Source: an uncultured Acidobacteriota bacterium (GTDB lineage Bacteria > Acidobacteriota > Vicinamibacteria > Vicinamibacterales > 2-12-FULL-66-21). From it: a DNA stretch of 64,000 nt. Below are positions 1,350-63,934 of this stretch, one piece after another (position 1 is the stretch's first letter; each line of letters opens with the position of its first letter). The position numbers and the translations under genes are program-made. The notes below the pieces were generated by a model that saw only the letters and a list, made by a program, of their open reading frames with translations, did no database searches and was not told where the DNA came from. The DNA lies in NCBI GenBank assembly GCA_963750475.1, contig CAVVQQ010000003.1, positions 513,191-577,190 of the forward strand, written 5' to 3'.

Positions 1350-1354
1350 TACGA

Positions 1355-1478
1355 GGTCGCTTCCAGCTCCCAGCTCCCAGCTCCCAGCTCCCAGCTCCCC
1401 GCTTCCAGCTCGCGGCTGCAGGTGACCCGCTGTCGGCGGCTGGTAGCGGGAAGCGGGGAGCGGGAAGCTGGGAGCTGG
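1355..1478. repeat. Inverted pair of heptamer arrays (CCAGCTC x5 then GGGAAGC/GGGAGCT units) forming a long imperfect hairpin
   Basis: Left arm is gcttccagctcccagctccc...ccgcttccagc. Right arm is gctggtagcgggaagcggggagcgggaagctgggagctgg. The reverse complement of ccgcttccagc matches gctggtagcgg with 1 mismatch. The pair lies between two minus-strand genes. Confidence 0.85.
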
Positions 1479-1919
1479 CTACTGCCCGCATCCCGCCGAC
1501 CGGAAGCGCACCGACCAGACGTCCATGACGGGGATGGTCTCGGGCGGCACCGGGCGGGACGCGCCCGAGCCAGCCACCGGGCTGCCGCCGCCGATGGTGA
1601 TCCGGCGGCCGATCTTGACGCCCGGCTCGATCAGCGCCGACTTGCGCACCAGGCCGGTGACGTCGACGAGGTGATGGTTCTCCTTCTTCACGTCGTCCAT
1701 CACGTCACCCTTCCCGGCAAGGCGGAAGGATTTCGCCCGGACCGGGGGACCGCTCTCCGTGTCGGGGCGGCGGACGTCCGACACCGCGAGCACGCGTCCC
1801 GCCAGGCAGCCGGTGATGGTGAGCTCGATCGAGTCCTTCGGGACTTTCGGTTTGTCGCTGGACGGCTCCTGTGCCGGGGCGGCGGCGAGCAGGGCCAGGA
1901 GGAGAAGGGATGCGGTCAT
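1479..1919 (-). CDS. Secreted hypothetical protein
   Basis: 146-aa ORF with a signal-peptide-like N-terminus (MTASLLLLALLAAAPAQE). No family recognised. Confidence 0.55.
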   Translation of the reverse strand: MTASLLLLALLAAAPAQEPSSDKPKVPKDSIELTITGCLAGRVLAVSDVRRPDTESGPPVRAKSFRLAGKGDVMDDVKKENHHLVDVTGLVRKSALIEPGVKIGRRITIGGGSPVAGSGASRPVPPETIPVMDVWSVRFRSAGCGQ

Positions 1920-5653: not shown

Positions 5654-6964
5654 ATGCCCAATCGCACTCCGCTCTATAAGAGCCTCTACATCCAGGTCCT
5701 CGCCGGCATCATCGCCGGCGTGCTGCTCGGGGTGCTCGCCCCCGCCACCGGCGTGGCGATGCGGCCGCTCGGCGACGGCTTCATCAAGCTGGTCCGGATG
5801 CTGATCGCGCCGATCATCTTCGCCACCATCGTCGCCGGCATCGCCCGCATGGGAGAGTTGAAGGAGGTCGGCCGGATCGGGCTGCGCGCCTTCATCTATT
5901 TCGAGGTCCTCTCGACCGTCGCGCTGCTGGTCGGACTGGTCGTCGTCAACGTCGTCCGTCCGGGCGACGGGCTGCACGTCGTGCCGAGCGCCGCCGACAT
6001 CCAGGCCGCGTCCGGCTACGGCACCGCCGCCGGCCAGGCGACCGGCACCGTCGCCTTCCTGCTCAACATCATCCCGACCACGTTCGTGGATGCGTTCGCG
6101 CGCGGCGACATCCTGCAGGTGCTGCTGATCTCGACCCTGGTGGGCCTGGCGCTGCTGATGCTCGGCGAGCGCACGGCGGCGCTCGTCGGCGTGATCGACG
6201 AGGCCGGGCAGGCGCTCTTTGCGGTGGTCGGGATCGTCATGCGGGCGGCGCCGGTCGGGGCCTTCGGCGCGATGGCGTTCACGGTCGGCCGCTACGGCAT
6301 CGGGACGCTGCTGTCGCTCGGCAAGCTGATGGCGGCGGTCTATCTCACCTGCGCGCTCTTCGTCGTCCTCGTCCTCGGCCTCGTCCTCCGCGTCGTCGGC
6401 CTCGGGCTGTTCCGCTTTCTCCGCTACATCGCCGACGAGATCGTCATCGTCATCGGCACCTCGTCGTCCGAGTCGGCGCTGCCGCGCCTGATGGTGAAGC
6501 TTGAGCGGCTCGGCTGCGCCAAGCCGGTCGTCGGGCTGGTCATCCCGGCCGGGTACTCGTTCAACCTCGACGGGACCGCGATCTACATGACGATGGCGGC
6601 GGTGTTCGTGGCGCAGGCAAGCGGCGTCGCGCTGTCGGTGCGGGAGCAGATCTCGATCCTCGCGGTCCTGATGCTGACGTCGAAGGGGGCGGCGGGGGTG
6701 ACCGGCAGCGGATTCATCACGCTCGCGGCGACCCTGTCGGCGATTCCCTCGATCCCGCCGGCCGGCCTGGCGCTGCTCGTCGGCGTCGATCGCTTCATGT
6801 CGGAAGCCCGGGCGGTCACCAACCTCATTGGCAATGCGGTCGCGACCGTGGCGATCGCGTGGTGGGACCGCGCGCTCGACATCGAACAGGCGCGGGCGGA
6901 GCTCGGCCGCCGCGGCGAACCGGCGCTGCTCGTGCCCGAGCCGGTGCTGGCGCCGGAACCGTAA
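5654..6964 (+). CDS. dctA: C4-dicarboxylate / dicarboxylate-amino acid:cation symporter
   Basis: 436-aa ORF. The N-terminus LYKSLYIQVLAGIIAGVLLG and the motifs SSSESALP and MSEARAVTNLIGNAVA are typical of DctA/DAACS carriers. Confidence 0.9.
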   Translation: MPNRTPLYKSLYIQVLAGIIAGVLLGVLAPATGVAMRPLGDGFIKLVRMLIAPIIFATIVAGIARMGELKEVGRIGLRAFIYFEVLSTVALLVGLVVVNVVRPGDGLHVVPSAADIQAASGYGTAAGQATGTVAFLLNIIPTTFVDAFARGDILQVLLISTLVGLALLMLGERTAALVGVIDEAGQALFAVVGIVMRAAPVGAFGAMAFTVGRYGIGTLLSLGKLMAAVYLTCALFVVLVLGLVLRVVGLGLFRFLRYIADEIVIVIGTSSSESALPRLMVKLERLGCAKPVVGLVIPAGYSFNLDGTAIYMTMAAVFVAQASGVALSVREQISILAVLMLTSKGAAGVTGSGFITLAATLSAIPSIPPAGLALLVGVDRFMSEARAVTNLIGNAVATVAIAWWDRALDIEQARAELGRRGEPALLVPEPVLAPEP

Positions 6965-6967
6965 GGC

Positions 6968-7052
6968 GACAGGAGCCAGTTCCCAGTCGCCAGTGGCCAG
7001 TCGCCAGTGGCCAGTCGCCAGTCGCCAGTCGCCAGTCCCAGTCGCCGGTTCC
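6968..7052. repeat. Tandem heptamer array (CCAGTCG / CCAGTGG / CCAGTTC), about 11 units, single orientation
   Basis: ccagttc ccagtcg ccagtgg ccagtcg ccagtgg ccagtcg x3 and so on. It starts 4 nt after the dctA stop and ends about 18 nt before the stop of the convergent gene at 7070. Confidence 0.9.
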
Positions 7053-7069
7053 GAGTTCGCGAGCGGATG

Positions 7070-7390
7070 TCAGGGGCGGGTGCTGAGGCGGCGGACGGCA
7101 TCGACGAGCGCCTGCAGCGCGGAATCGGCGATGGGATCGTCCACCGTCACGCGGTGACGCCTCCGCCCGTCCTCCACTTCGATTTCGTGGGACTGATGGT
7201 CGGCCGAGCCCGCGGGCGCGGGCAGCCGGCTCGGGAGGGTAAAGAACCCGGCCTCCTGCACCAGCCGTTCGAGTGCGGTCCGGTCCGCGGGGGCCAGCGT
7301 CCCGGCGTCAACCGTCCGCGCCGCCTCCAGCCCGGGGAAGGCGCCAATTCCCCCGGTCGTCCTGACACTCACCCTGAGGGGGACACTCAT
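7070..7390 (-). CDS. Small hypothetical protein, possibly emfourin-like (metalloprotease-inhibitor family)
   Basis: 106-aa ORF. LRVSVRTTGGIGAFPGLEAARTVD...LERLV resembles the R-x-GG-x-AG...VD N-terminus I associate with emfourin-family proteins, but the match is weak. An alternative GTG start lies at 7372. The ATG lies inside the 33-nt repeated motif. Confidence 0.4.
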   Translation of the reverse strand: MSVPLRVSVRTTGGIGAFPGLEAARTVDAGTLAPADRTALERLVQEAGFFTLPSRLPAPAGSADHQSHEIEVEDGRRRHRVTVDDPIADSALQALVDAVRRLSTRP

Positions 7391-7409
7391 CTTTAGCGTA
7401 ACTCGTTGA
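7377..7409. repeat. 33-nt conserved motif, copy 1 (AGGGGGACACTCATCTTTAGCGTAACTCGTTGA)
   Basis: Identical except for 1 base to 24094-24126. Both copies are intergenic. Confidence 0.85.
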
Positions 7410-7448
7410 CCCGTAAGGGCAAACAGTAAAACAGGGGCTGATCGGCGC

Positions 7449-9401
<1,953 letters not shown>

Positions 9402-10049: not shown

Positions 10050-12731
10050 TCAGCCGGTGTTGCGCATCCCGGCGGCGATGCCGTTGACGGTGACCATGAA
10101 CGCCTTGGAGATCTGCGGGTCGACCTCCTCGGTCTCGCGCAGCCGGCGGAGCAGCTCGATCTGGACGAGGTTGATCGGGTAGACGTACGGGTTCCTCACC
10201 TCGATCGAGCGCCGCAGCACGACGTTCTCGGTCAGCAGGCGCTCCTTGCCCGAGGTGCGCAGCACCGCGGCGGTGGTCTCGACGAGGCGGCGCCGCAGGT
10301 CGGCGCCGACCTCGTGCAGGCCATCGGGCACCAGCCGGCAATCGTACTCGGCGGCAATCCGCGCGTCGGACTCGGCCAGGACCATCGCGATCAGATCGAT
10401 TGTCGACCGGAAGAACGGCCAGCCGGCGTACATCTCGCGCAGGATCGGCAGCTCGCCGCGGTCGAGCGCCGCGCTCAGCGCCTCGCCGGTGCCGAGCCAC
10501 GACGGCAGCAGCAGCCGGGTCTGCGTCCAGGCGAACACCCACGGGATGGCGCGCAGCGAATCGACCCCGCCGCCGGCGACGCGCCGCGCCGGCCGGCTGC
10601 CGATCGGCAGCGAGCCGAGCTCGATCTCCGGCGTCGCGGCGCGGAAGTATTCGATGAACCTCGGGTCCTCGTAGACGACGTCGCGGTAGACCGTGCGGGC
10701 GGCGGCGGCGAGGCGATCCATCTCGTCGCGCCAGCCCGGCTCGGGCGCCGGCGGCAGCGCCAGCGTCGTCCCGAGCGTCGCGGTCGTGTAGAGCTCGAGG
10801 GTGCGGGCGGCGATGTCGGGCAGGCCGAACTGCGCCTGGATCATCTCTCCCTGCTCGGTGACGCGCAGCCGGCCCTCGACCGATCCCGGCGGCTGCGACT
10901 GGATCGAGAGGTAGGTCGGCCCGCCGCCGCGGCTGATGCTGCCGCCGCGGCCGTGGAAGAGCGTCAGTTCGACCCCCGCCTCGCGGCAGACCTCGACGAT
11001 CGACTCCTGGGCGCGGTAGAGCGCCCAGTTCGCCGACAGCCGGCCGCCGTCCTTCGCCGAATCGGAGTAGCCGATCATGATTTCCTGACGCCCCTCGATC
11101 CGATCCCGGTACGCCGGCATCGCGAGCAGCGACCGCAGCGTCGCGGCGGCCCCCTCGAGGTCGTCGACCCGTTCGAAGAGCGGCACGACCCGGAGGCGCG
11201 ACGGCGATCCGGCCTGGAGGGCCTCGACGGCCAGAACGTCCGACGGCGCCTGGGCCATCGAGACGACGTAGGCCGAGAGTGACTCCGGATGGATCTCGGC
11301 CGCCGTCCGGAAGGTGGCGAAGACGTCGCGATTCTCGTCGCTGGCGGCGAGGTCTGGCGGCACCAGCGGGCGGCCGTCGCTGATCGCGGCGGTCAGGAAC
11401 GCCTGCCGGCGGGTTTCGTCCCAGTCCTCGTAGCGACCCAGCCCGCGGTGCTCGGTCACGGCGGTCAGCGCGGCGGCATGCCGCGAGGCGTGCTGGCGGA
11501 GGTCGAGGCGGACCAGGGTCAGGCCGAAGGCCGCGGTGCGGCGGAGGACGTCGGCGAGCCGGCCGCTGGCGATCAGTTCCTGGCCGGTGGCGACGAGCGA
11601 GTCGTAGCAGAGCCGCAGCGGCTCGACCAGTTCGGCGATGGCGACGTACGGCGCGGCCCGGCCGCTCTCGGCCCGCGGCGCCTCGGACTGGAAGAGCTCG
11701 GCCCGGGCGAGCTGACGGCCAAGGTCGTCGCGCGTCGCGCGCAGCCGGTCGCGCACCTCGCGGAGGACGGCCCGGTACGGCTCGCGCGCGCCCCGCCCCC
11801 GGGCGCGGAGCTCCGCGGTCGCGCCGGTCATCGAGAGCTCGGCCCGCAGCGCGCCGATCTCCCGTTCGTAGAGATCCGCCGCCATCCAGCGCGCTACCGC
11901 GCAGGCCAGCTGGGTGACGCGCGGCGTGACGGTCGGGTTGCCGTCGCGATCGCCGCCCATCCACGAGCCGAAGCGGATCGGCGCCGCGTCGAGCGCCAGC
12001 GATCGGCCGGTGGCGGCGGCGAGCGCGCTGTCGAGCGATCGCACGAAGCGCGGCACGGCGTCCCACAGCGTCTGCTCGAAAATCAGCAGCCCGGCGATCG
12101 CCTCGTCGACCGGCGTCGGCCGGCGCGGCCGGATCTCGTCGGTCTCCCACGCCGCCATGATCTCGCGGCGCAGCAGCCCGGCAATCTCCTCCCGCTCCGG
12201 GGCGGTCAGATCGCCGCGGTCCTGGCGGGCGAGCGCCGCCGCGATGCGCAGATGCTTCTGAATCAGCGTCCGCCGCGTGATCGTCGTCGGATGCGCGGTC
12301 AGCACCAGCTCGATGCGCAGCGCCGCGGTGGCGTCGTGCAGGGTCTCGGGCGCGACCCCGGCGGCGAGCAGCCGCGCGAAGGTCTCCTCGCACGAGCCGC
12401 GCTGCGGCGGCGCCGTCTGATCGTGCTGGTAGGCGCGCCGGCGGCGCACCCGATGGTGCTGTTCGGCGATGTTCGCGAGCGTCAGGAAGTGCGAGAACGC
12501 GCGCGCGATCGGGACGGTCGACTCGACCGGCAGCTGGCGGAGCAGGTCGGCGACGGCATCGAGGTCGCGGTCGCTGCCGGCGCGGCCGCTCTTCGAGAGC
12601 GCCCGGACCCGCTCGACGATCTCATACAGCTCGGCGCCCTCGCGGTGCCGGAGCGTCTCGCCAAGGATGCCGCCGAGCATCCGCACATCGTCCCGCAGCC
12701 GCTCGTGAGGATCCCGCATGCGCGTCGTCAT
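10050..12731 (-). CDS. ppc: Phosphoenolpyruvate carboxylase
   Basis: 893-aa intact ORF. It has the conserved VLTAHPT and GYSDSAKDGG motifs, FHGRGGSISRGGGP, and the canonical C-terminus GIAAGMRNTG. Confidence 0.95.
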   Translation of the reverse strand: MTTRMRDPHERLRDDVRMLGGILGETLRHREGAELYEIVERVRALSKSGRAGSDRDLDAVADLLRQLPVESTVPIARAFSHFLTLANIAEQHHRVRRRRAYQHDQTAPPQRGSCEETFARLLAAGVAPETLHDATAALRIELVLTAHPTTITRRTLIQKHLRIAAALARQDRGDLTAPEREEIAGLLRREIMAAWETDEIRPRRPTPVDEAIAGLLIFEQTLWDAVPRFVRSLDSALAAATGRSLALDAAPIRFGSWMGGDRDGNPTVTPRVTQLACAVARWMAADLYEREIGALRAELSMTGATAELRARGRGAREPYRAVLREVRDRLRATRDDLGRQLARAELFQSEAPRAESGRAAPYVAIAELVEPLRLCYDSLVATGQELIASGRLADVLRRTAAFGLTLVRLDLRQHASRHAAALTAVTEHRGLGRYEDWDETRRQAFLTAAISDGRPLVPPDLAASDENRDVFATFRTAAEIHPESLSAYVVSMAQAPSDVLAVEALQAGSPSRLRVVPLFERVDDLEGAAATLRSLLAMPAYRDRIEGRQEIMIGYSDSAKDGGRLSANWALYRAQESIVEVCREAGVELTLFHGRGGSISRGGGPTYLSIQSQPPGSVEGRLRVTEQGEMIQAQFGLPDIAARTLELYTTATLGTTLALPPAPEPGWRDEMDRLAAAARTVYRDVVYEDPRFIEYFRAATPEIELGSLPIGSRPARRVAGGGVDSLRAIPWVFAWTQTRLLLPSWLGTGEALSAALDRGELPILREMYAGWPFFRSTIDLIAMVLAESDARIAAEYDCRLVPDGLHEVGADLRRRLVETTAAVLRTSGKERLLTENVVLRRSIEVRNPYVYPINLVQIELLRRLRETEEVDPQISKAFMVTVNGIAAGMRNTG

Positions 12732-29564: not shown

Positions 29565-32142
29565 ATGGCGCAAGAGACCCTTCCCGTCGTTACCGGAGAA
29601 AAGGACCGCTCCCTCCAGGAGGCGCTGACCCGGCTGACCGCGTCCCGCGGCCCGGTGAGCGATCCGGCGGATCCGATCGTCACGGCGGCGCATCGCCTGC
29701 CGGCGATTGCAGCGTCGTTCGCCCCCTATCCTGAAGGGACCGACCCGCGGCTGCGGAGCGCGCTGGCGGCGCGGGGCGTCGAGCAGCTCTACACGCATCA
29801 GGCCGAAGCGTTCGGCCACGTCGCTCGGCGGCCGCAACGTCGTCACCATCACGCCGACCGCTTCGGGCAAGACGCTCTGCTACAACGCGCCGGTGCTGAA
29901 CGCGATCCTGCAGGATCCGTCGACCCGCGCGCTGTATCTGTTTCCCGACCAAGGCGCTGGCGCAGGATCAGCTCGCCGAGCTGCACGCGCTGTCGGAGCT
30001 CGTCAGCGAGCGACACCGACGTCGAGATCGGCGTCTTCACCTACGACGGCGACACGCCGTCGGATGCGCGGCGCGCGATCCGCGGCAAGGCCCACGTCGT
30101 GCTCAGCAATCCCGACATGCTGCACTCGGGGATCCTGCCGCACCATCCGCGCTGGGCGAAGCTGTTCGAGAACCTGCGCTTCGTCGTCATCGACGAGCTG
30201 CACGCCTATCGCGGCGTGTTCGGCAGCCACCTCGCGCAACATCCTGCGCCGGCTGCAGCGGATCTGCCGGCACTACGGGTCCGATCCGGTCTTCATCTGC
30301 TCGTCGGCGACGATCGCCAATCCGCGCGAGCTGGCCGAGGGGCTGACCGGGCGCCCGTTCGAGCTGGTCGAGAAGAGCGGCGCGCCGCGCGGCGAGAAGT
30401 TCTTCCTCTTCGTCAACCCGCCGGTCGTCAACGCGCAGCTCGGCATCCGCCGCTCGTACCTGGCCGAGGCGCGGCGGGTCGCGCTCGAGTTCCTGAAGCA
30501 CAACCTGCAGCTGATCCTCTTCGCGCAGAGCCGGCTGGCGGTCGAGATCCTGACGACGTATCTGAAGGATGCCTTCCACGGCCCGCCGGGCGCGGCCGAC
30601 GTCATCCGCGGCTATCGCGGCGGCTACCTGCCGAACCGCCGCCGCGAGATCGAGCGCGGGCTGCGCGACGGGCTGGTGCGCGCGGTGGTCTCGACCAACG
30701 CGCTCGAGCTCGGCATCGACATCGGCGCGCTCGACGTGTCGGTGATGGCCGGCTACCCGGGAACGATTGCCGCGACCTGGCAGCGCGCCGGCCGCGCCGG
30801 GCGCCGCGACGACGCGATCGGCGGCGGTGCTGGTGCGCCAGCAGCGCGCCGATCGATCAGTTCATCGTCCGCAACCCGTCGTATTTCTTCGACGCCATCG
30901 CCCGAGCACGCGCTGATCAATCCCGACAACCTGCACATCCTGCTCGACCACGTGAAGTGCGCGGCGTTCGAGCTGCCGTTCACGAGACGACGAGACAGTT
31001 CGGCGTCGCGAGGCGCCGCGACGAGGTCGACATTCAGGCGGTGCTCGGCGTCCTCGCCGAGGAGGGCTTCGTCCATCAGGCCGACGGCCAGTGGAACTGG
31101 ACCAACGAGTCGTACCCGGCCGACGCGGTCAGCCTGCGGTCGGTGTCGTCCGACAACTTCGTCGATCGTCGACACCACGCACGGCGAGCGGGTCATCGGC
31201 GAGACCGACTTCACCAGCGGCCCGTCGACGCTGCACGAGAAGGCGATCTACATCGTCGAAGGGCGCTGTTCCAGGTCGAGCGGCTCGACTTCGACGGCCG
31301 CAAGGCCTACGTGCGCGCGGTCGACTGCGACTACTACACCGACGCGATCACCTACACGAAGGTCACGATCCTCGACACGTTCGAGACGGGTCGCCAGCTC
31401 GCAGCTTCCAGCTCCCAGCTCACCGCTGACGACGACGAGCTGCCAGCTCCCAGCTCCCAGCTGCCGGCTGACGACGCAGAGCTCCCGGCCCTCGGCAGCT
31501 CGAGCTTCAGCGGCACTCCCCGGCGATCTCGAGCCGGCGGGCGTATCCGGCCCCGGCGCGATCCGCTCGCACGGCGAGGTCCACGTCGTCTCGCGCGTCG
31601 TCGGCTTCAAGAAGATCAAGTTCTACACCAACGAGAACGTCGGCTCGGGCGAGCTCGATCTGCCCGAGCAGCAGATGCACACCTCGTCGTACTGGCTGAC
31701 GATTCCGTCGGCGGTGATGGCGGCGCTGCCGTTTGCCGGCGACGATCGCCGCGACGGCGTCGTCGGCCTGGCGTTCGCGATGAAGAACGTCGCGCAGCTG
31801 CTGCTGATGTGCGACGGCCACGACATCGGCCTGTCGGTGGACGGCGGCGCGCTCGAGCGGTCGGCGCGGACCGGCGGCATCGGCGGCGTGCCCGACGCGC
31901 TCGCGACCGAGCCGAACGTCTTCATCTACGACAACTATCCCGGGCGGCATCGGCTTCAGCCGGCCGCTGTTCGAGATGCACGCGCCGCTGCTGGCGCGGA
32001 CGCGCGAGCTGATTGCCGGCTGCCCGTGCGAGTCCGGCTGCCCGTCGTGCGTCGGGCCCGAGGGCAACACCGGGCCGCACGCCAAGACAGGTGGCGCTCG
32101 CGCATCCTCGACGCGCTCGACTCGCCGCGGAGGCCGCCTGAC
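29565..32142 (+). pseudogene. DEAD/DEAH helicase with C-terminal DUF1998 zinc domain (MrfA/YprA-like), more than 10 frame changes as assembled
   Basis: Pieces alternate between the frames of ORFs 29565 and 29707. They are: LYTHQAEAF; NVVTITPTASGKTLCYNAPVL; VVIDELHAYRGVFGSHLA; ICSSATIANP; STNALELGIDIGALD...WQRAGRAGRR; DCDYYTDAITYTKV; and GCPCESGCPSCVGPEGN (the DUF1998 Cys cluster). The end coordinate is approximate. Confidence 0.8.
31394..31512. repeat. Heptamer array embedded in the helicase reading frame (17 units in constant 7-nt phase)
   Basis: ccagctc gcagctt ccagctc ccagctc accgctg acgacga cgagctg ccagctc ccagctc ccagctg ccggctg acgacgc agagctc and so on. This is the same unit family as the intergenic arrays. 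It lies between the DUF1998 segments ILDTFE and HGEVHVVSRV. Confidence 0.85.
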
Positions 32143-33569
32143 GTGGACCTCTCGTCGCGGCTGCGGGCGATCGTCCGGCGGGAATCCGGGAAGCCGGCCG
32201 GGGCGCCGCTCCGCGAGCTCACCTACGAGCCCGACAGCGGCGGCTACGAGGCGACGATCGGACCTCGGGCGGGTGAGTGCGACTGCTCGGCGGACGCTGT
32301 CACCGAGACCGCGTTCGGCCCGTGCCTCGTCATCGACCGGCGCTACGAGGCCGATCGCTGGCACGGAGCGATCCGCATCGGCGACTGCGATCGCGAGGAT
32401 GGCGATGCGCTCGGCATCCTCGATCCGTCGCTGCGGGCGCTGCGCGGCCGGCGCGGCGGGGAGCGAGGCTGGGGGCAGCGCGCGCCGCTTTCCGCGCACC
32501 GTGTTCATCGACCTCGAGACCACCGGCCTGAGCGGCGGCGCCGGCACGCTGGCGTTCCTGGTCGGCTGCGGCTACTTCGATCTCGGCGCCTTCCAGGTCC
32601 GCCAGTTCCTGCTCACCAGCCACGCCGGCGAGCGCGCGCTGCTGGCGGCGGTGGCCGACTTCTTCGCCGGCTGCGATCTGATCGTCACTTACAACGGCAA
32701 GACGTTCGACGTGCCGGTGATGGAGACGCGCTGGGTGTTCCATCGGCATGCGGATGCCCGCTGGGCGGACGTGCCGCACTTCGACATGCTCCACCCGGCG
32801 CGGCGGCTGTGGCGATCGCGCGCCCGGGTCCGGCGGCGAAATCGAGGAGGCCGGCTGCCGCCTGTCAACGCTCGAGCGGACGCTGTTCGGCGTCATGCGG
32901 GTCGGCGACGTTCCCGGCTTCGAAATCCCGGCGCGCTTCTTCAACTTCCTGCGCAGCGGCGATCCGCGTCCGCTCGAGCCGGTGCTCGAGCACAACCGCC
33001 TCGATCTCGTGTCGCTGGCGGCCGTGACGGCGCGCGCGCCTGCGGCTGGCGCGCGACGGGCACCACGCCTGCCGCGACGAGGCCGAAGCGCTGGCGCTCG
33101 GCCGCGTCTACGAACGGGCCGGTGCGCTCGACCGGGCGGAATGTTGCTACCGGCGGCGGCCGATTCGGCGACCGCGGAGGTGAGGGGAGAGGCGCTCTAC
33201 AGGCTTGGCCTGCGGCGGCGGCGCGAGCGCCGGTTCGAAGAGGCGGCGGCGGCATGGCGGGCGATCTGTCGAGCTGACCGAGCCGCGCCATGTGCGGCGG
33301 CTGGCGCGGCTTGGCGACCTGCGCCAGTTCGCGGTCGAAGCGCTGGCGATTCATCACGAGCACCGCCAGCGGGATCTCTGACGGCGCGCGCGAACTGGCG
33401 ATGTTCGCGCTGCAGGAGGCGAGCCGGCGGCGCGGGCGCTCGGGATGCGCCACCGGCTGGCGCGCTCGACGGAAGATCAGCGAGAGGGTGGAACGGGGAG
33501 GGGCAGCCGGGAGACCGGGACGCCGGGCGCACCCCGGCAAAAACAGACGCCCAGCTCTTTTCGAGCTGA
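32143..33569 (+). pseudogene. RNase H-like/DnaQ-like exonuclease with TPR-like tail (MrfB/YprB-like), several frame changes; boundaries approximate
   Basis: RTVFIDLETTGLSGGAGTLAFLVGCGYF...LIVTYNGKTFDVPVMETRW...HFDMLHPARRLW is the YprB-type exonuclease core. The N-terminal LSSRLRAIV...GPCLVIDRRYEADRWHG and the C-terminal repeats are spread over other frames. Confidence 0.65.
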
Positions 33570-33574
33570 GCGTC
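33537..33574 (-). terminator. Rho-independent terminator downstream of rpmE
   Basis: The minus-strand RNA reads GACGCUCAGCUC-GAAAA-GAGCUGGGCGUC followed by UGUUUUUG. That is 11 bp with 1 mismatch, starting 29 nt after the rpmE stop. Confidence 0.65.
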
Positions 33575-33602
33575 CGGGAGGTCGCGATCGGTGTGGGCGG
33601 CG

Positions 33603-33880
33603 CTACTTGGCGCCGACGGCGGCCTTTTCGGTCTTCTCGGCCTTCTTGGTCTTCGCGGCCGCCTTGCGGCTCTCGGACGTCTGCACGCCGAACCGCTTGG
33701 TGAACCGCTCGACGCGCCCTTCGGTGTCTACCAGCTTCTGGCGGCCGGTAAAGAACGGATGGCAGTTGTTGCAGATCTCGAGGTGCAGCTCGGGCTTGGT
33801 CGAGCGGGTCTTCCACGTCGCGCCGCACGCGCAGCGCGCCTCGATCTCGTTGGTACTTGGGGATGAATCCCTTCCTTCAC
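33603..33880 (-). pseudogene. rpmE: 50S ribosomal protein L31, two single-base insertions as assembled
   Basis: GTG-AAG-GAA-GGG-ATT-CAT-CCC gives MKEGIHP. It is followed by C-AAG-TAC-C-AAC-GAG, where removing one C from the run at 33859-33862 and one from 33852-33853 restores [57 protein letters not shown]... to the stop at 33603-33605. Confidence 0.85.
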
Positions 33881-33909
33881 TGCAGGCTCCTTGGAGGCTT
33901 CGGGCAAAA

Positions 33910-33945
33910 GGGCATTATACCAGCCCGCCGCAAGGAATGGAACCA
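33910..33945 (-). promoter_or_regulatory. Putative sigma-70 promoter of rpmE with extended -10
   Basis: The minus strand reads TTCCAT-N17-TGGTATAAT (TATAAT = 33914-33919). It is followed about 25 nt later by AAGGAG (33887-33892), 6 nt before the GTG. Confidence 0.45.
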
Positions 33946-33999
33946 TGTAGATGCTAAGCGCCGCAATTGCAACGACTTAGCGTGCCTTCTGCGCCCTTC

Positions 34000-34966
34000 C
34001 TACTCCAAGTCGACGCTCCGTTCCCAGCGGTGCTGCCTGAGCTCAGCCATGAGCGTTTCCGGCAGCCGCCTGCCGTCGCTGGCGGCGATGTTCTCGCTCG
34101 ACGTGGCGGAGTTTGCGCATGCCCGGGATTACGGTCGTCACGGCCGGGTGCTGAAGGATGTGCCGCAGCGCCAGTTCGGGGAGCGTCATCCCTTCCGGCA
34201 CGACCGGCTTGAGCCGTCGACGCGCTCGAGCGTCGGCGTGAGCTTCTCGGGCGTGAAGTAGAAATTGCGGAAGTCCCCTTCGGGCCAGCGTGAGTCGGCC
34301 GTCAGCGTGCCGGTCAGGCTGCCCTCGTCGAAGGGAACGCGGGCGATGACGGCGATGTTCTTTTCGCGGCAGGCCGGGAAGAGCTCGTCTTCCGGGCTCT
34401 GGTCGAAGACGTTGTAGACGACCTGGACGGCGTCGATGAGGCCGGTGTCGAGCGCGCGGAGGACGTTCTCCGGCTGCCAGCGGTTGACGCTGATGCCGAA
34501 CGCCTTGACCAGCCCTTCGTCCTTCAGCGCCCGAGGCGGCTTTCTGCCAGCGGTCGTCGTCCGCCCAGGCGTCGCTCCAGACATGGAACTGCTGGAGGTC
34601 GATGGTCGAGACGCCCATGTTGGCGAGGCTCTTCTCGGTGTACTCGCGGATGTAGTCGGGCGGATAAACGTCGTCCAGCGGGTACTCGGGGCGGGCCGGC
34701 CACTTGCGGTTCTTCGGCGGGATCTTGGTGGCGGCATAGAGCCGCGTCCCGGCATGGCGCTTGAGCGCCTCGCCGAGCAGCACTTCGCTGTGGCCGTCGC
34801 CGTAGGCCCAGGCGGTGTCGAAGAAGTTGCAGCCGCGGGCGATCGCGTGGTCGAGCGACTTCAGCGACTCCTCGTCGTCGCTGCCGGTCCACCCGGCCAT
34901 GCCCCACATGCCGTAGCCGATTTCGGAAACGTCCCACCCGGTACCGCCAAAGGGTCTGTAACGCAT
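34000..34966 (-). pseudogene. Aldo/keto reductase, about 3 frame changes as assembled
   Basis: MRYRPFGGTGWDVSEIGYGMWGM...CNFFDTAWAYGDGHSE is in the frame of ORF 34043-34966. LKDEGLVKAFGISVNRWQPENV...IAVIARVPFDEGSLTG is in the frame of ORF 34186-34755. The C-terminus IPGMRK...NIAASDGRRLPETLMAELRQHRWERS reaches a TAG at 34000-34002. Confidence 0.8.
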
Positions 34967-34974
34967 CCCTGAAT

Positions 34975-35130
34975 CATATCCTCTCGCTACCGGCTTCCCG
35001 CTGTCCCGCTTCCCGCTTCCCGCTTCCCGCTACGCTGTCCCGCTCCCACGCTGTCCGCTGCCACGCTGCCACGCTGCCACGCTGCTCCGCTGCCACGCTG
35101 CTACACGGGCACGCTGCTCCGCCACGGTCG
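34975..35130. repeat. Tandem array drifting from 7-nt (CGCTTCC / GCTGTCC) to 8-nt units (ACGCTGCC / ACGCTGCT)
   Basis: Read directly: gcttccc gctgtcc cgcttcc x3 ... acgctgcc acgctgcc acgctgcc acgctgct ccgctgcc acgctgct. It begins about 10-20 nt upstream of the AKR start codon (34966, minus strand). Confidence 0.9.
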
Positions 35131-46702: not shown

Positions 46703-47104
46703 CAGCTTCCGGCTTCCGGCTTCCCGCTGTTGCCAGTAGCCAGTTGCCAGTTGCCAGTAGCCGGTAGCCAGTAGCCAGTACCACGGCACTGGCAGAACTG
46801 ACCTTACGGAACTCTGCGCAGAACTGAACCTCGGAGAACCGAACCCCGCAGAACCCTGCGGAACCCTGCACAACCCGGCAGAACGCATATCCTGCAGAAC
46901 CCTGTGGAACCCCGCAGAACTCGGTGGAACCCTTTTGAACCCCGCAGAACCCTGCAGAACAGAACCCTGCAGAACTGAACCCTGCAGAACAGAACCCTGC
47001 AGAACAGAACCTTGTAGAACCGAACCTTGGAGAACCGAACCTTGGAGAACCGAACCCTGCAGAACCCTGTGGAACCCCGAAGAACCCCGTAGAACCCGTA
47101 GAAT
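46703..47104. repeat. 400-nt composite tandem-repeat tract (heptamers CGGCTTC / GCCAGTN, then about 15-nt units GAACCCTGCAGAACA)
   Basis: cagcttc cggcttc cggcttc...tgccagt agccagt tgccagt..., then agaaccctgcagaac repeated about 8 times with variants (cgaaccttggagaac), decaying to cccgtagaac. It spans from 3 nt after the upstream stop to 6 nt before the M28 ATG. Confidence 0.9.
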
Positions 47105-55683: not shown

Positions 55684-57050
55684 TCACCGACCGCCGTTGG
55701 CCATCGAGCCGAGGAACTCGGCGTTGTTCTTGGTCTTGCCCATCTTCGACAGCAGCAGCTCCATCGCCTCGACCGGCGAGAGCGGCGTCAGCACCTTGCG
55801 CAGCACCCACACGCGGTTGAGGTCTTCCTTCGGCATGAGCAGCTCTTCCTTGCGCGTGCCGCTCTTCTGGATGTCGATCGACGGGAACACGCGGCGGTCG
55901 GCCAGCTTGCGATCGAGGTGGATTTCGAGGTTGCCGGTGCCCTTGAACTCCTCGAAGATCACTTCGTCCATGCGCGAGCCGGTGTCGATCAGCGCGGTCG
56001 CGATGATGGTCAGCGAGCCGCCTTCTTCGATGTTGCGGGCGGCGCCGAAGAAGCGCTTCGGGCGCTGCAGCGCGTTGCTGTCGACGCCGCCCGACAGCAC
56101 CTTGCCCGAGGGCGGCACGATGGTGTTGTAGGCGCGCGCCAGGCGGGTGATCGAGTCGAGCAGGATGACGACGTCCTTCTTGTGCTCGACCAGGCGCTTG
56201 GCCTTCTCGATGACCATCTCGGCGACCTGGACGTGGCGCGTGCGCCGGCTCGTCGAACGTCGACGAGATGACCTCGCCCTTGACCGAGCGCTGCATGTCG
56301 GTGACTTCTTCGGGCCGCTCGTCGATGAGCAGGACGATCAGGTAGACCTCGGGATGGTTGGTCGTGATGCTGTTGGCGATGTTCTGCAGCAGCATCGTCT
56401 TGCCGGTGCGCGGCGGCGCGACGATCAGGCCGCGCTGGCCCTTGCCGATCGGCACCATCAGGTCCATGACGCGGGCCGACAGGTTGTCGGAGGCGGTCTC
56501 GAGCTTGATGCTGCTCCTGCGGGTAGAGCGGCGTCAGGTTCTCGAAGAAGATCTTCTCGCGCGCCCGCTCCGGCGGCTCGAAGTTGACCGCCTCGACCTT
56601 GATCAGCGCGAAGTAGCGCTCGCCTTCCTTCGGCGGGCGGATCTGGCCCGACACCGTGTCGCCGGTGTGCAGGTCGAACTTGCGGATCTGCGACGGGGAG
56701 ACGTAGATGTCGTCGGGGCCGGGCAGGTAGTTGTAGTCGGGGGCGCGCAGGAAGCCGAAGCCGTCGGGCAGCGTCTCGAGCACCCCTTCGGAGAAGATCA
56801 GGCCGCTCTTCTCGGCGCGCGCTCTGCAGGATCTCGAAGATCAGCTCCTGCTTGCGCATGCCGGTCGCGCCGGGCACGTCGAGCTGCTTGGCGATCTTGG
56901 TCAGCTCGGTCGACGCTCATGTCCTTGAGCGTCGAGAGCTCGATACGCTCGACTCCGCCGGCGGGGCGGTCGGCCGGGGCCGTCGTCGCGGGCGTCGTCG
57001 CTGCCGGTGCCGCTGTTGTCGGCCCCGCCGGAGCGGCTTGTCTGCGTCAT
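55684..57050 (-). pseudogene. rho: Transcription termination factor Rho, at least 5 frame changes as assembled
   Basis: The pieces across frames are: [38 protein letters not shown]; [41 protein letters not shown]; [24 protein letters not shown]; and [16 protein letters not shown]...[22 protein letters not shown]. Confidence 0.9.
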
Positions 57051-57650
57051 CGGTTGTTGTCCCTGGCCGGGCCAGTCTTGCGATCAGTTGTCCACAGTTC
57101 GTCCAGTCCTTCGCCGCTCGTTGCCGAGACCGGCAGGGCGGCGCATGCCAAATACGTGTTCCGAGGTCGCGCAGGTTGCGCACCCGTTCGCGCGCGCGAC
57201 AGTTTGTCGACCTTGGTCGCGACGATCTGCCGGCGTCGGCGCCGACCGTCGACAGCCACCGGTAGGCCGCGGCAGGTCGGGCTCGAGCCCGGGATGCCGC
57301 GAATCGACCAGCAGCAGCGCCGCGCGGTCCCGGCGCGGCGCTCGGGTCAGCCGCGTCCGGCGAAATAGCTGGCCGCGACCGCCGCGAGCTCGTTCGCCGA
57401 GTCGCTCGCCGCCCCGGGCGTAGCCGTAGCCGGGCAGGTCGACGAGGTAGAGGCGCCATCGGCCCGGACCGCCGGCGCCCCCTTCGACCGTCAGGCGAAA
57501 GATGTTCGCCAGCCGCGTCTTGCCGGGGCGGCGCTGGTCCGCGCCAGCTTGCGGCGGCACGAGCGCGTTGATCAGGGTCGACTTGCCGACGTTCGAGCGC
57601 CCGGCCAGCGCCACTGCGGCAGCCGTCGTGCGGGATGTCGCGCGGCGCAC
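57047..57650 (-). pseudogene. engB: Ribosome-biogenesis GTPase YihA/EngB, frame changes as assembled
   Basis: [45 protein letters not shown] and [12 protein letters not shown] are spread over three frames. The stop TGA overlaps the rho ATG (cgATGAcg). Confidence 0.8.
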
Positions 57651-57770
57651 GGCGGCGCTCGTGACGAAGTCAGCGGAAGAGCTTCAAGGTCGGCGCAGGC
57701 GGGCCGGGCGGGGCTGCCGTGGACCGAACGTCGGCGCTCAGCACGACCCCGAGTCCCTGCCAGCCATGCG

Positions 57771-60169
<2,399 letters not shown>

Positions 60170-60184
60170 GTATGGGTGATTCGT

Positions 60185-60300
60185 GCAGCTGCTCAGCTTC
60201 AGCTGTCAGCTACCGGCTGCCAGGGCGTGCAGCTGGTGGCGAGGTCGCGGGAGCGGCTGAAGTGCTGCCAGCGGTGAGCTGGCAGCTGGAAACGGCAGCG
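60185..60300. repeat. Heptamer arrays in both orientations (CAGCTNN then AGCTGGN) between lon and clpX
   Basis: The first part is cagctgc tcagctt cagctgt cagctac cggctgc, and the second part includes agctggc agctgga aacggca. The two parts share several complementary 8-12-nt blocks, for example ccggctgccag and ctggcagctgg. Confidence 0.85.
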
Positions 60301-60301
60301 T

Positions 60302-61557
<1,256 letters not shown>

Positions 61558-61650
61558 GGTCGTTGTCAGCTTCCAGCTTCCAGCGTCCGGCTTCCCGCTG
61601 GCACCCGTGACCGGAAACGCTGGCAGCTGGGAGCTGGCAGCGGTGAGCGC
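61558..61650. repeat. Inverted heptamer arrays forming a ~24-bp hairpin between clpP and clpX
   Basis: The reverse complement of cagcttccagcttccagcg (61567-61585) matches cgctggcagctgggagctg (61618-61636) at 17 of 19 positions. tccgg and ccgga extend the stem. The loop is about 20 nt. Confidence 0.85.
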
Positions 61651-62252
61651 CTACGCCCGCTTGCGGATGACATCATCAATAATACCGTATTCCTTGCCCT
61701 GGTCGGGCCGCCATGATGTAGTCGCGCTCCGTATCGTCCTGGATGCGCTTCAGCGGCTGGCCGGTGTGCTGGGCCAGGATCTGGTTGAGGCGCTCGCGCG
61801 TGCGCAGCAGCTCGCGGGCATGGATGTCGATATCGGTCGTCTGGCCGCCCAGGCCCTGCACCCACGGCTGGTGGATCAGGATCCGGGAGTTCGGCAGCGA
61901 GAACCGCTTGCCCTTGGCGCCCGGCCGCCAGCAGCACCGCCGCCACCGACGCCGCCTGGCCGATGCAGTAGGTCTGCACGTCCGGCTTGATGAACTGCAT
62001 CGTGTCGTAGATCGCCATGCCGGCCGTGATCACCCCGCCCGGGCTGTTGATGTACAGCAGGATGTCGCGGTCCGGGTCCTCGGCCTCGAGGAACAGCATC
62101 TGGGCGATGACCAGGTTGGCGACGTTGTCGTCGATCGGCGTGCCGATGAAGATGATGCTGTCCTTCAGCAGGCGCGAAAAGATGTCGTAGGCGCGTTCGC
62201 CGCGGTTGGTCTGCTCGACCACCATCGGGATGAGCTGCATGCGTTCAGACAT
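61651..62252 (-). pseudogene. clpP: ATP-dependent Clp protease proteolytic subunit ClpP, frame changes as assembled
   Basis: [53 protein letters not shown]...[21 protein letters not shown]...YCIGQAAS, then LIHQP...[11 protein letters not shown] in another frame. An extra base in the GGG run at 61704-61706 precedes the C-terminus [17 protein letters not shown]. Confidence 0.9.
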
Positions 62253-62362
62253 ACGGACTCGGACTCCGGACGTGCTGCGCGAGAATCGGATTGCAGGGGA
62301 GCCGGCGTCGCGGCAGGTCTGGCTCGTGTCTGATTATATCGGCCGCGACCGGCGAATGTCAA

Positions 62363-63726
62363 TTACCGTACGGTCGATCCCTCCTGGATGACCGTGGCCC
62401 TGCGACAGCAGGAAATCGACCGACTTTCTCCCGCCGCAGGCCGGCATACAGCCGGGCGAGGCCGCCCTCCTTCTCGAGCCGGGCCCGGACCGCGGCCGGC
62501 GTCCGGCCGGTGCGCTCGGCATAGCGGCTCGACCTCGGCCTCGACCTCGTCGTCGGTGACCTCGATCTGCTCGCGCCGGGCGACCTCGTCGAGCACCAGC
62601 GCGCCCTTGACCGCCTCGATGCGCCGCCTCGCGCTGCTGCTCGCGGAACTCCTCCCAGTTGATGCCGGCCTTCATCGGGTCGATCTGCTGCTCGATCAGC
62701 CGGCGCGACGAACTCCTCGACCCGGCGGTCGATCTCGCGGTCGAGCAGCGTCGCCGGCACCTCGAACGTCACCCGCGCCGCCAGCTGCTTCAGCAGCTCG
62801 CCGCGCGCCTCGCGCTCGGCCTCGTGCTCGCCTCGTGCTCGAGATCCTCGCGCACCCGCGTCCGCAGCGCCTCGAGCGATCTCGAACTCGCCGAGATCCT
62901 TGGCGAACTCGTCGTCCAGCTCGGGCATGACCGCGGCGCCGGATCGCCTTGACCGTCGACGTGGTAGGTGACGGTCGTGCCGGCCAGCTCCGTCGATGGC
63001 GTAGTCGGCCGGGTAGTGCACGTCGAACGACTTCGACGTCGCCGTCCTGCAGGCCGATCAGCTGCTCGTCGAAGCCCGGCGGGTTGGCGGTGGCGCCGAT
63101 CTCGACGGTCACGTTGTCGTGCCGATCGGTGCTGCGGCTCGCCGGCCGCCGGCGGCGGCGCCGGCTCACCGGCGATCACGACGCGGCTCGTCCGTTTCGG
63201 CAGCGCCGTCCGCTCGATGTCCAGCACCACCGAGTCGCCCGTCTCGATCGCCGCGCCCTTCGACCGGCTCGTAGCGCGCGGCGCGCTCGCGCAGCCCTGC
63301 GAGCGCCTCGTCCACGGCCGCATCCTCGACCCGGCTGCGCCTTGCTGCGTGCAGCGTGATGCTGGCGTAGTCGCCCGGCTCGATCGGCGGGACGGTGTCG
63401 AAGGTCGCCGTGAACTTCAGCGGCTGCCCCTCTTCGACGACGACGTCGCGGATGTCGGGCGTGTCGACCGGCTCGACGCCGCGCTCGCGCAGCGCCTCGT
63501 CGACGGCGCGCGGGATCAGGCCGTGCGCGACGTCGTGCAGGATCTGATCGCGGAAGCGCTGGCGGACGACCTTGGCCGGCACTTTCCCGGGCCGGAAGCC
63601 GGGGATGCGCGCCGCCTTGCTGTAGTCGCGCGCGACCTTGTCGATCTCGGCATCGACGGTGACGCTCGGAATCTCGACGACGAGGTTCTTCTGGGTGTCG
63701 CTGACGTCTATAAATTCTGTCTTCAT
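62363..63726 (-). pseudogene. tig: Trigger factor, frame changes as assembled
   Basis: The N-terminus is MKTEFIDVSDTQKNLVVEIPSVTVDAEIDKVARDYSKAARIPGFRPGKVPAKVVRQRF. The later domains are split over three frames, ending AGLRREKSVDFLLSQ. Confidence 0.85.
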
Positions 63727-63747
63727 TGAGCTTCTGATGAGATCGAG

Positions 63748-63831
63748 TGCGAAAGGGGGGAGTCGAACCCCCACGGCCTTTCGGCCACCGGATCCTAAGT
63801 CCGGCGCGTCTGCCAGTTCCGCCACTTTCGC
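63748..63831 (-). tRNA. tRNA-Leu (anticodon UAG), class II with long variable arm
   Basis: The minus strand reads GCGAAAG-TG-GCGGAACTGGCAGACGC-G-CCGGA-CTTAGGA-TCCGG-TGGCCGAAAGGCCGT-GGGGG-TTCGACT-CCCCC-CTTTCGC-A. The acceptor, anticodon and T arms all pair. No CCA is encoded. Confidence 0.9.
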
Positions 63832-63849: not shown

Positions 63850-63934
63850 TTAGCGTATCACGCGGGAAGCCGGCAGCGGGAAGCGGGAAGCGGGAAGCTG
63901 GAAGCGGGAAGCTGGCAGCTGGAAGCCGGAAGCT
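63850..63934. repeat. Tandem heptamer array (GCGGGAA / GCTGGAA / GCTGGCA / GCCGGAA), about 11 units
   Basis: gcgggaa gccggca gcgggaa x3 gctggaa gcgggaa gctggca gctggaa gccggaa. It lies between the stop codon of the partial gene at 63935 and the 5' side of tRNA-Leu. Confidence 0.9.

Follow-up and report, generated by a model that had tools for sequence, protein, structure and literature searches.

A heptanucleotide-derived variable loop at the connector turn of an MrfA-type helicase in the Vicinamibacterales, probably tolerated and filtered by reading frame

The stretch of 64,000 nucleotides (nt) analysed here, referred to as the window, comes from an uncultured Acidobacteriota bacterium of the order Vicinamibacterales (assembly GCA_963750475.1, contig CAVVQQ010000003.1), has a G+C content of 68%, and carries a gene for a helicase of the MrfA/YprA type within which a tandem array of heptanucleotides is found. 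For domain assignment the forward frames 0-2 of this gene were stitched into one translation from 29565 to 32141, and the resulting protein was matched by the Pfam families PF00270 (2.3e-32), PF00271 (5.5e-13), WHD_HRQ1 and PF09369 (MZB/DUF1998; 3.4e-18, residues 735-828). The four-cysteine motif of the Zn site, CPCESGCPSC, lies in frame 2 at about 32020-32050. Directly 3' of the helicase gene there is a gene with an RNase_H_2 domain (PF13482) in L001, which is the clean syntenic contig of the closest relative (GCA_031393955.1), and likewise in contigs L083, L085 and L086; its position in the window is syntenic. Judged by its sequence, the gene belongs to the MrfA/YprA (DUF1998) helicase family and has the mrfA-mrfB operon layout. 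A preliminary description of the window had read the helicase in the frame of the open reading frame (ORF) that starts at 29565 upstream of the array and in that of the ORF starting at 29707 downstream of it, and this is correct for the two sides of the array; the two long ORFs are not the whole helicase, since the gene hops among three frames about a dozen times.

The position of the array within the protein was established through the closest intact orthologue, P0001, a protein of 851 amino acids (aa) with 91% identity. Residues 39-604 and 664-843 of P0001 align with Bacillus subtilis YprA/MrfA (6ZNP_A; E = 3.5e-235), and the alignment splits exactly at the loop, query residue 604 corresponding to chain residue 577 and query residue 664 to chain residue 588. 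In B. subtilis MrfA the CON element (residues 557-630) is a three-stranded antiparallel sheet which joins the OB domain to the Zn-binding MZB domain (631-749), moves along with the MZB "drum" and is part of the lining of the DNA entry funnel (PMC7797055). The split, together with these boundaries, aligns the array to the turn of the CON sheet upstream of DUF1998/MZB, and not between segments of DUF1998 as had been proposed, MZB/DUF1998 being confined to residues 735-828. The loop of the window occupies approximately residues 598-661 and is aligned to residues 577-588 of the B. subtilis protein, inside CON; the two proteins share the domain set, the four-cysteine Zn site and the MrfB-type neighbour (PDB 6ZNP, 6ZNQ, 6ZNS; PMC7797055) but differ at this turn, which measures about 10 residues in B. 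subtilis MrfA, as in distant orthologues, and about 64 in the window. An AlphaFold2 model on a 78-sequence alignment was poor overall (mean predicted local distance difference test score, pLDDT, 52.8) because the alignment was too shallow in diversity; residues 585-663 all scored below 50 without secondary structure, and the loop is predicted to be disordered and surface-exposed.

The units of the array (Table 1) read, in order, CCAGCTC GCAGCTT CCAGCTC CCAGCTC ACCGCTG ACGACGA CGAGCTG CCAGCTC CCAGCTC CCAGCTG CCGGCTG ACGACGC AGAGCTC; five are perfect, one has a single mismatch, four have two mismatches, and three are spacer units of the ACCGCTG/ACGACGA type. Tandem Repeats Finder (TRF) reported period 7 at 31394-31462 with 9.9 copies, and the longest perfect heptamer run in the loop is of 2.9 copies. 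The higher-order repeat of 42 nt, which equals six heptamers or 14 codons, keeps both the heptamer phase and the reading frame. Autocorrelation at lag 7 over 31394-31512 is 0.58, as compared to 0.30 +/- 0.04 in dinucleotide shuffles (z = 6.5, with 0 of 2000 shuffles reaching 0.58), and this value is reached by just 0.7% of the 119-nt windows across the 64 kb; these windows form seven clusters, namely the array at 31394 and six others which match period-7 arrays detected by TRF. The array is therefore real and of period 7 as first described, but the 17 units then counted were too many, as only the 13 units from 31394 to 31484 carry the periodicity. In the same way, the borders which gave a length of 119 nt, noted at the time as not being a multiple of three, are arbitrary, and the length relevant to the reading frame is that between the anchors (Table 1). 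Frames 0 and 1 are indeed open through the array, with two stops in frame 2. With up to one mismatch allowed, the window contains 10 copies of the dimer CCAGCTCCCAGCTC, where 0.02 would be expected, and among their sites are intergenic positions 1363-1397, 1465-1478 (minus strand, in the inverted partner of the preceding array) and 61624-61637 (minus strand, in the clpP-clpX spacer); the repeat unit is therefore common to the array in the gene and to intergenic arrays, confirming that the former belongs to the CCAGCTC family of the intergenic DNA.

Table 1. Coordinates of the helicase locus and of intergenic heptamer arrays in the window
Feature	Positions	Strand	Remarks
mrfA/yprA-type helicase gene	29565..32141	+	DEAD, Helicase_C, WHD_HRQ1, MZB/DUF1998; readable only by hopping among three frames
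Variable loop-coding segment	31377..31569	+	Anchors ...KVTILD and HGEVHVV...; 193 nt, net +1 relative to an in-frame loop
Heptamer array proper	31394..31484	+	13 units in unbroken 7-nt phase, CCAGCTC family; frame 0 gives a 30-aa peptide
42-nt higher-order duplication	31402..31483	+	TRF period 42, 2.0 copies, 85% matches; lag-42 identity 0.80
Tail counted earlier as units 14-17	31485..31512	+	Lag-7 identity 0.33, as background; without heptamer periodicity
Best candidate extra base, TT pair	31505..31506	+	By inference from the comparison with L001
mrfB/yprB-like exonuclease gene (RNase_H_2, PF13482)	32143..33569	+	Directly downstream of mrfA; synteny with L001 9171-10598; many single-base indels
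Intergenic inverted array pair	1350..1485		GCTCCCA (rotation of CCAGCTC) x7.6, then AGCGGGA x4; fold -90.1 kcal/mol, z = -5.7
Intergenic arrays GCTTCCC, CCAGTAA, AGCTGGA, CTGGCAA	26725..26863		Between adh_short and Na/Ala symporter genes; L001 spacer also has an array
Inverted heptamer arrays CAGCTTC / GCTGGCA, same family	61560..61655		clpP-clpX spacer (TRF, ORF context); fold z = -4.8

Conservation of the loop was analysed in the 120 best database proteins (82-91% identity; from Acidobacteriota or Vicinamibacterales wherever a source was named) and by a genome scan with one genome per species, in which 80 loci were recovered and both anchors were found in 78 Vicinamibacterales loci. The flanks DYYTDAITYTKVTILDTF and RSHGEVHVVSRVVGFKKIKF are invariant in all 120 proteins, and the segment between them differs in almost every cluster; 187 of 199 sequences have distinct loops, of 8-92 aa. 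In each of the 78 loci the length of the loop (24-243 nt) is divisible by three, and the upstream and downstream flanks are read in one and the same frame. An in-frame loop at the site of the array, the existence of which had been put forward for checking by orthologue alignment, is thus found throughout both sets. The closest relative carries TCCCAGC x5.1 at the same site and in frame, both in L001, where the loop is of 186 nt, and in L002, an independent assembly of that gene, and at least 13 further species-level loci have arrays at the loop site, all of them in frame. The array is therefore not a recent invasion of the window genome, but an old, clade-wide feature which is still expanding and contracting. 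The short turn is probably the ancestral state, because many distant orthologues (64-70% identity) have short, non-repetitive loops resembling that of B. subtilis; in the close relatives P0070 and L020 the loop is almost absent. A separate clade (L021, L022, L027, L029 and L033) has a non-repetitive insert with the motif AALAAG[LI]E at the same site, which makes the CON turn a general insertion hot spot not exclusive to heptamers. A second insert of roughly 15 aa (DQSAHAPEEGSDRSIGS) was seen elsewhere in one protein, at residues ~140-165 of P0152; this part of the RecA1 region has the sequence TRDTDVEIGVF in the other orthologues.

The heptamer origin of the loops can be recognised in DNA and peptide alike. 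In the DNA of loops that span 90 nt or more, self-identity rises to 0.38, 0.36 and 0.34 at lags of 7, 14 and 21, against about 0.27, and the lag-3 signal typical of ordinary coding DNA is missing; the loop peptides show an autocorrelation peak at lag 7 (0.17 against about 0.09). Allowing one mismatch, 55 of the 187 loops hold a heptad which is the three-frame translation of one of five heptamers, that is CCAGCTC (PAPSSQL), GGGATCC (GIRDPGS), the complement of GGGATCC (GSRIPDP), GGGATTC or GAATCCC (ESRIPNP), as compared to one among composition-matched shuffles. Within one cluster at 90% identity there are alleles of 852, 859 and 894 aa, of which the first two differ by exactly one PDPEPRV heptad, the longest one having an additional 35 aa (five heptad lengths); a second such cluster has alleles of 881 and 902 aa. 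These comparisons within clusters are better evidence of steps of 7 aa than is the quantisation of loop length over all orthologues, a weak effect (in a chi-square test on samples that are not independent, p = 0.16 with every loop included and 0.013 for those reaching 30 aa). Two traits of an intragenic heptanucleotide variable number tandem repeat (VNTR) are therefore present, namely 7-nt units in an ORF read as 7-aa repeats and copy-number polymorphism between close alleles. ON/OFF phase variation by single-unit slippage was found in 0 of the 78 loci, none of which is out of frame, the sole out-of-frame copy being that of the noisy window. Perfect heptamer runs in the loops are short (median 2.65 copies, maximum 4.3, compared to up to 10.6 in intergenic arrays), and the amplified units inside the gene are higher-order repeats of 21 or 42 nt, such as the 21-nt unit encoding PGSRTTD x4 in P0066 and the 42-nt duplication of the window. 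This is the pattern expected if slippage continues and only the frame-preserving outcomes survive. In the orthologues L004, L024 and L049 the loops are near-perfect inverted repeats which fold as long hairpins (z = -5.6, -3.7 and -3.2). A hairpin in the loop of the window itself was considered and discarded (z = -1.0), the loop of L001 giving z = 0.1.

The break in frame of the window's gene has to be seen against the indels of its surroundings. Compared to L001 positions 6616-9171 the helicase gene has 92.5% nucleotide identity and, outside the loop, 14 single-base insertions and 4 single-base deletions; codon differences outside the loop amount to 132 synonymous and 32 non-synonymous, and the same comparison for two intact neighbours gives 58:18 for adh_short and 86:21 for the symporter. 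On a track of the phase of G+C content at third codon positions (GC3), frame hops cluster at about 29.8-34.9 kb and 56.2-63.8 kb and are mostly stepwise +1. Indels in these two clusters break mrfA and mrfB, the gene for ribosomal protein L31, the aldo-keto reductase gene, clpX and clpP, and the single-base indels of both clusters are overwhelmingly +1 insertions. Outside of them the window is clean, adh_short having no indels and the GT28 ORF being intact. The stretches 29800-34900 and 56200-63800 have the appearance of locally unpolished long-read assembly. The net +1 of the loop is the commonest error type of the window, and at a rate of approximately one insertion per 170 nt about one would be expected within the 193-nt loop segment. 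The resemblance to L001 is in frame 0 up to ...ELPALGS and in frame 1 from SAALPGDLEPAG onwards, so that the switch from frame 0 to frame 1, as far as the sequence comparison goes, most probably lies after the array, at 31494-31512. Dropping one T of the TT pair listed in Table 1 gives GSSSSAALPGDLEPAGVSGPGAIRSHGEV (GSSSSAALPGD...), colinear with GSQLSAALPGDLEPAGISGPGAIRSHGEV (GSQLSAALPGD...) of L001, and one of these two bases is the best candidate for the extra one. The preliminary description had left two readings side by side, a tolerated loop with its frame obscured by indels and an insertion that inactivated the gene. The former agrees with the in-frame array of L001 and L002, with the in-frame loops in all 78 loci and with the at least 14 other single-base insertions. 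The best explanation for the frame break of the window is accordingly assembly indel noise and not inactivation, because the 132:32 ratio indicates purifying selection, because the indels are biased toward insertions, and because the conserved clpX, clpP and L31 genes are struck in the same noisy stretches.

The distribution of heptamer arrays outside the loop was addressed by a census of arrays of at least 3.5 copies in 1.05 Mb composed of the window, 79 species-level loci and L001. Tandem arrays of period 7 (n = 90) outnumbered those of period 8 (n = 22) and period 9 (n = 24). After merging there were 84 period-7 arrays, of which 19 lie in helicase loops (13 loci plus the window) and four lie at sequence ends and could not be classified. 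None of the remaining 61 was called intragenic by the GC3/ORF test, and the 11 whose two flanks had the same GC3 phase appeared intergenic on inspection. The helicase loop is thus the only coding site found to host heptamer arrays within the census, and array density is higher there, with 19 arrays in roughly 9 kb of loop DNA and 61 in the non-coding part of 1 Mb. The search for other intragenic arrays that had been suggested was therefore carried out over about 1 Mb of helicase neighbourhoods and yielded none outside the helicase loop. No conserved element sequence and no target-site duplication were identified for the loop arrays, none of the arrays in the window was matched by an RNA family in Rfam (the sole match being the tRNA at 63748-63831), and a literature search for heptamer repeats in Acidobacteria or Vicinamibacter found nothing.

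Among known systems the closest in form is neuO of Escherichia coli K1, carried on prophage CUS-3, where the poly-psi VNTR consists of AAGACTC repeats in the coding region that are translated into RLKTQDS heptads, and only copy numbers in multiples of three give protein (PMC3046976); NeuO activity rises with the number of heptads. The likeness to mrfA lies in heptanucleotides within an ORF, of which three units make one 7-aa heptad read in all frames, in an intact protein only at unit numbers divisible by three, in a peptide which is flexible or structurally unresolved, and in allelic variation of copy number. However, the neuO tracts are long and perfect (2-93 copies), are situated at the 5' end and act as a high-frequency ON/OFF switch, whereas those of mrfA lie in the interior of the gene, are imperfect and short, with no more than 4.3 perfect copies, have no OFF allele in the 78 genomes analysed, mix several unit families and amplify higher-order repeats of 21 and 42 nt. 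The short, imperfect tracts and the absence of OFF alleles among the 78 genomes set mrfA apart from phase-variable contingency loci.

The Rickettsia palindromic elements (RPEs), which Ogata and co-workers reportedly described in 2000 as inserted in frame in protein-coding genes, represent another comparison. RPEs in coding genes have since been reviewed (PMC10969869). As with the loop of mrfA, repetitive and often hairpin-forming DNA that is also present between genes enters an ORF and adds to the protein a segment which its fold can accommodate, and the near-perfect inverted repeats in the loops of L004, L024 and L049 add to this likeness. RPEs differ in being discrete elements of about 150 bp which encode a conserved peptide and reside in many unrelated genes, whereas the mrfA insert is an array of simple sequence, with units and length that vary, present in one gene and at one site in the DNA sampled. 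Intergenic heptamer arrays also exist in other phyla, as in the short tandemly repeated repetitive (STRR) sequences of cyanobacteria. In Beggiatoaceae the heptamer repeat is TAACTGA (PMC4679880), and the same paper cites Mrazek et al. 2007 for heptanucleotide long simple sequence repeats. These have in common with the arrays studied here a dominant period of 7, a mostly intergenic location, a variety of units and occasional translated copies; the present ones differ in occurring in Acidobacteriota, in a high-GC genome, with other units and with frequent inverted pairs forming long hairpins, and above all in one conserved intragenic site common to the whole order.

Taking these observations together, we consider it likely, with good confidence, that the array is a simple-sequence insert which is tolerated, under a filter of reading frame, at a permissive turn of the connector in a working helicase, and that the frameshift of the window is sequencing noise. 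On this model, in a lineage of Vicinamibacterales (Acidobacteriota) with an abundance of tandem heptanucleotide arrays, elsewhere situated in intergenic DNA, such arrays would have joined the reading frame at one permissive point of the helicase, the turn of the CON sheet linking the OB and Zn-binding domains. Since three heptamers make 21 nt, or seven codons, a unit is read in all three frames and yields heptad peptides (CCAGCTC giving PAPSSQL). Replication slippage and unequal recombination would keep altering the array, and selection would let pass only the changes which keep the frame, the outcome being short perfect heptamer runs, amplified higher-order units of 21 and 42 nt, and alleles that stand apart by whole steps of 7 aa. 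The net +1 of the window would then belong with the many other erroneous single-base insertions in this noisy part of the assembly. The loop is hypervariable and, by its sequence, probably a disordered part of a functional DNA-repair helicase of the MrfA type; slippage as the generator of its variation, and its functional neutrality, are what we infer from the pattern.

It should be noted that several points weigh against this interpretation. Alignment of the DNA to L001 leaves the site of the +1 ambiguous, as the repeats allow several equally good registers, and the gain of one heptamer (+7 nt) also amounts to +1, with 193 - 7 = 186 nt giving the loop length of L001; the +1 of the loop could therefore be a one-unit slip, either real or made by the assembly. 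An independent clean copy of the window allele was absent from two exact-match scans of metagenome contigs (GCCGGCTGACGACGCAGAGCTCCC and CCCCGGCGATCTCGAGCCGGCGGGC), and an exact look-up of the intact neighbouring glycosyltransferase was also without a match. The metagenomic allele L084 carries an in-frame TAG inside the loop. The disorder and exposure of the loop are predictions for which the AlphaFold2 model is weak (mean pLDDT 52.8), and with CON lining the DNA entry funnel (PMC7797055), an acidic insertion of 60-90 aa could have effects on function. Finally, the census covers the neighbourhoods of the helicase (~1 Mb), and its arrays were classified by a GC3/ORF heuristic in place of a gene caller.

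The equivalence of +7 and +1 and the TAG of L084 are all that gives weight to the possibility, highly unlikely in our view, that the gene is truly off or dead, either through a one-unit slip (+7 nt) placing the Zn-binding domain out of frame, comparable to phase-OFF in neuO, or as part of an mrfAB operon that has become a pseudogene. A net +1 is what +7 leaves modulo three, removal of one unit restores the 186 nt of L001, the indels are concentrated in mrfA and mrfB and uneven over the window, the related metagenomic contig L084 has a stop codon in the loop, and heptanucleotide slippage is the established ON/OFF switch of neuO (PMC3046976). Against all this, none of the 78 species-level loci is out of frame, perfect runs are so short (2.9 copies here and at most 4.3 anywhere) that low slippage is predicted, the 14 other frame breaks are single-base insertions and not changes of unit, and clpX, clpP and the L31 gene carry the same noise. 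The synonymous to non-synonymous ratio of 132:32 indicates purifying selection up to the present, and the dominance of insertions is unlike natural gene decay in bacteria, which is biased toward deletions. As regards natural OFF alleles, "proteins" of 183-191 aa corresponding to the C-terminus were examined as candidates and rejected, as their contigs end in the array, are chimeric there or, in one case, carry the TAG. Contig L084 has this TAG within a 24-unit GARYCCC array (positions 250-300), L083 is joined over positions 1-250 to unrelated sequence via an AATCCCT/GAATCCC array and is probably chimeric, and L085 (positions 1-20) ends inside the loop.

An adaptive role, in which the length or charge of the loop would tune helicase activity or DNA entry or diversify a surface targeted by inhibitors, is unlikely as well. 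Its long retention in many lineages at up to 92 aa, and the density of arrays above that of intergenic DNA (19 in roughly 9 kb, against 61 in the non-coding part of 1 Mb), would fit such a role, as would its projection from CON, given the movement of this element with the MZB "drum" and its place along the DNA entry funnel (PMC7797055); helicases of the YprA family also act in defence systems (PMC12458937). Yet neither sequence, length (8-92 aa) nor charge is conserved, the close relatives P0070 and L020 have almost no loop, the composition is set directly by whichever heptamer is present, and the MrfB neighbour marks the repair type and not a defence operon. There is a slender chance that the loop acts as a slippage "dial", in which steps of 21 nt would tune helicase loading or activity, in the way that the heptads of NeuO do for its acetyltransferase activity, and rare steps of 7 nt would switch MrfA off. 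The idea of a native low-complexity linker unrelated to the intergenic repeat family has very little to be said for it, even though a variable linker is found at this position in all orthologues and some clades (the AALAAG[LI]E type) have non-repetitive inserts: the intergenic array at 1363-1397 has the same unit as the window's loop, the periodicity of loop DNA is of 7 nt and not of 3 nt, L024 and the window each have, no more than a few kb away, an intergenic array with the unit of the loop (as does L001 with one mismatch), L083 was joined to another locus via a shared unit, and several loops are inverted array pairs as in the intergenic hairpins. That the array was placed in the gene by the assembly, through a chimeric join or a collapsed repeat, is practically negligible as an explanation. 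Arrays do break or mis-join short-read assemblies, with L083 chimeric at the array and L085 ending in the loop, and the assembly of the window is noisy here, but the window matches the orthologue colinearly on either side of the array, the closest relative has, in two independent assemblies, a same-family array at that codon position, and the at least 13 more loci with in-frame arrays there speak against it too. The tolerated, frame-filtered insert therefore remains our preferred reading.

Further arrays of the window lie between genes. Nearly all of its heptamers rotate to CC[AC]G[CT]NN (CCAGCTC, CCAGCTT, CCAGTAA, CCAGTAG, CCAGTCG, CCAGTTG and CCCGCTT), other genomes having unrelated units such as GGGATTC, AATTGGG and CAATCAG, which suggests a genome-specific family or constraint. 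Arrays often consist of a unit followed by its reverse complement. The hairpin at 1350-1485 is just upstream of the start of a minus-strand gene at about 1340, and that at 61560-61655, between minus-strand clpP and clpX, may be an attenuator, a terminator or a processing site. A C-rich array at 34985-35122 changes gradually from period 7 (CGCTTCC) to periods 8 and 16 (ACGCTGCC) and has less structure than its shuffles (z = +2.6); in L001 the orthologous spacer (12012-12095) has an array as well, and array positions can thus persist between species. A different repeat family with periods 10, 15 and 30 (consensus CAGAACCCTGCAGAA, 8.1 copies, 92% matches) occupies 46817-47103, following heptamer arrays at 46705-46780, and the tRNA gene (63748-63831, minus strand) is directly flanked by a heptamer array, GCGGGAA/GCTGGCA, at 63862-63934.

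For annotation, these results mean that what appears to be a gene-disrupting repeat is a conserved, variable in-frame loop, and that an otherwise intact mrfAB repair operon can be miscalled as a pseudogene; for assembly, heptamer arrays break or mis-join short-read contigs at mrfA. The turn of the MrfA connector sheet takes inserts of 8-92 residues, which is of interest to protein engineering and bears on the tolerance of the connector "canopy" for bulky additions. Were the loop a "dial" after all, soil Acidobacteria would gain heritable and reversible variation of a DNA-repair pathway. As regards repeat biology, the Vicinamibacterales, a soil order rich in uncultured members, are very rich in heptamer arrays, and the helicase loop is the only coding site found to have taken them up. 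It offers a natural example of how selection on the reading frame reshapes a simple-sequence repeat, with short perfect runs and units of 21 and 42 nt.

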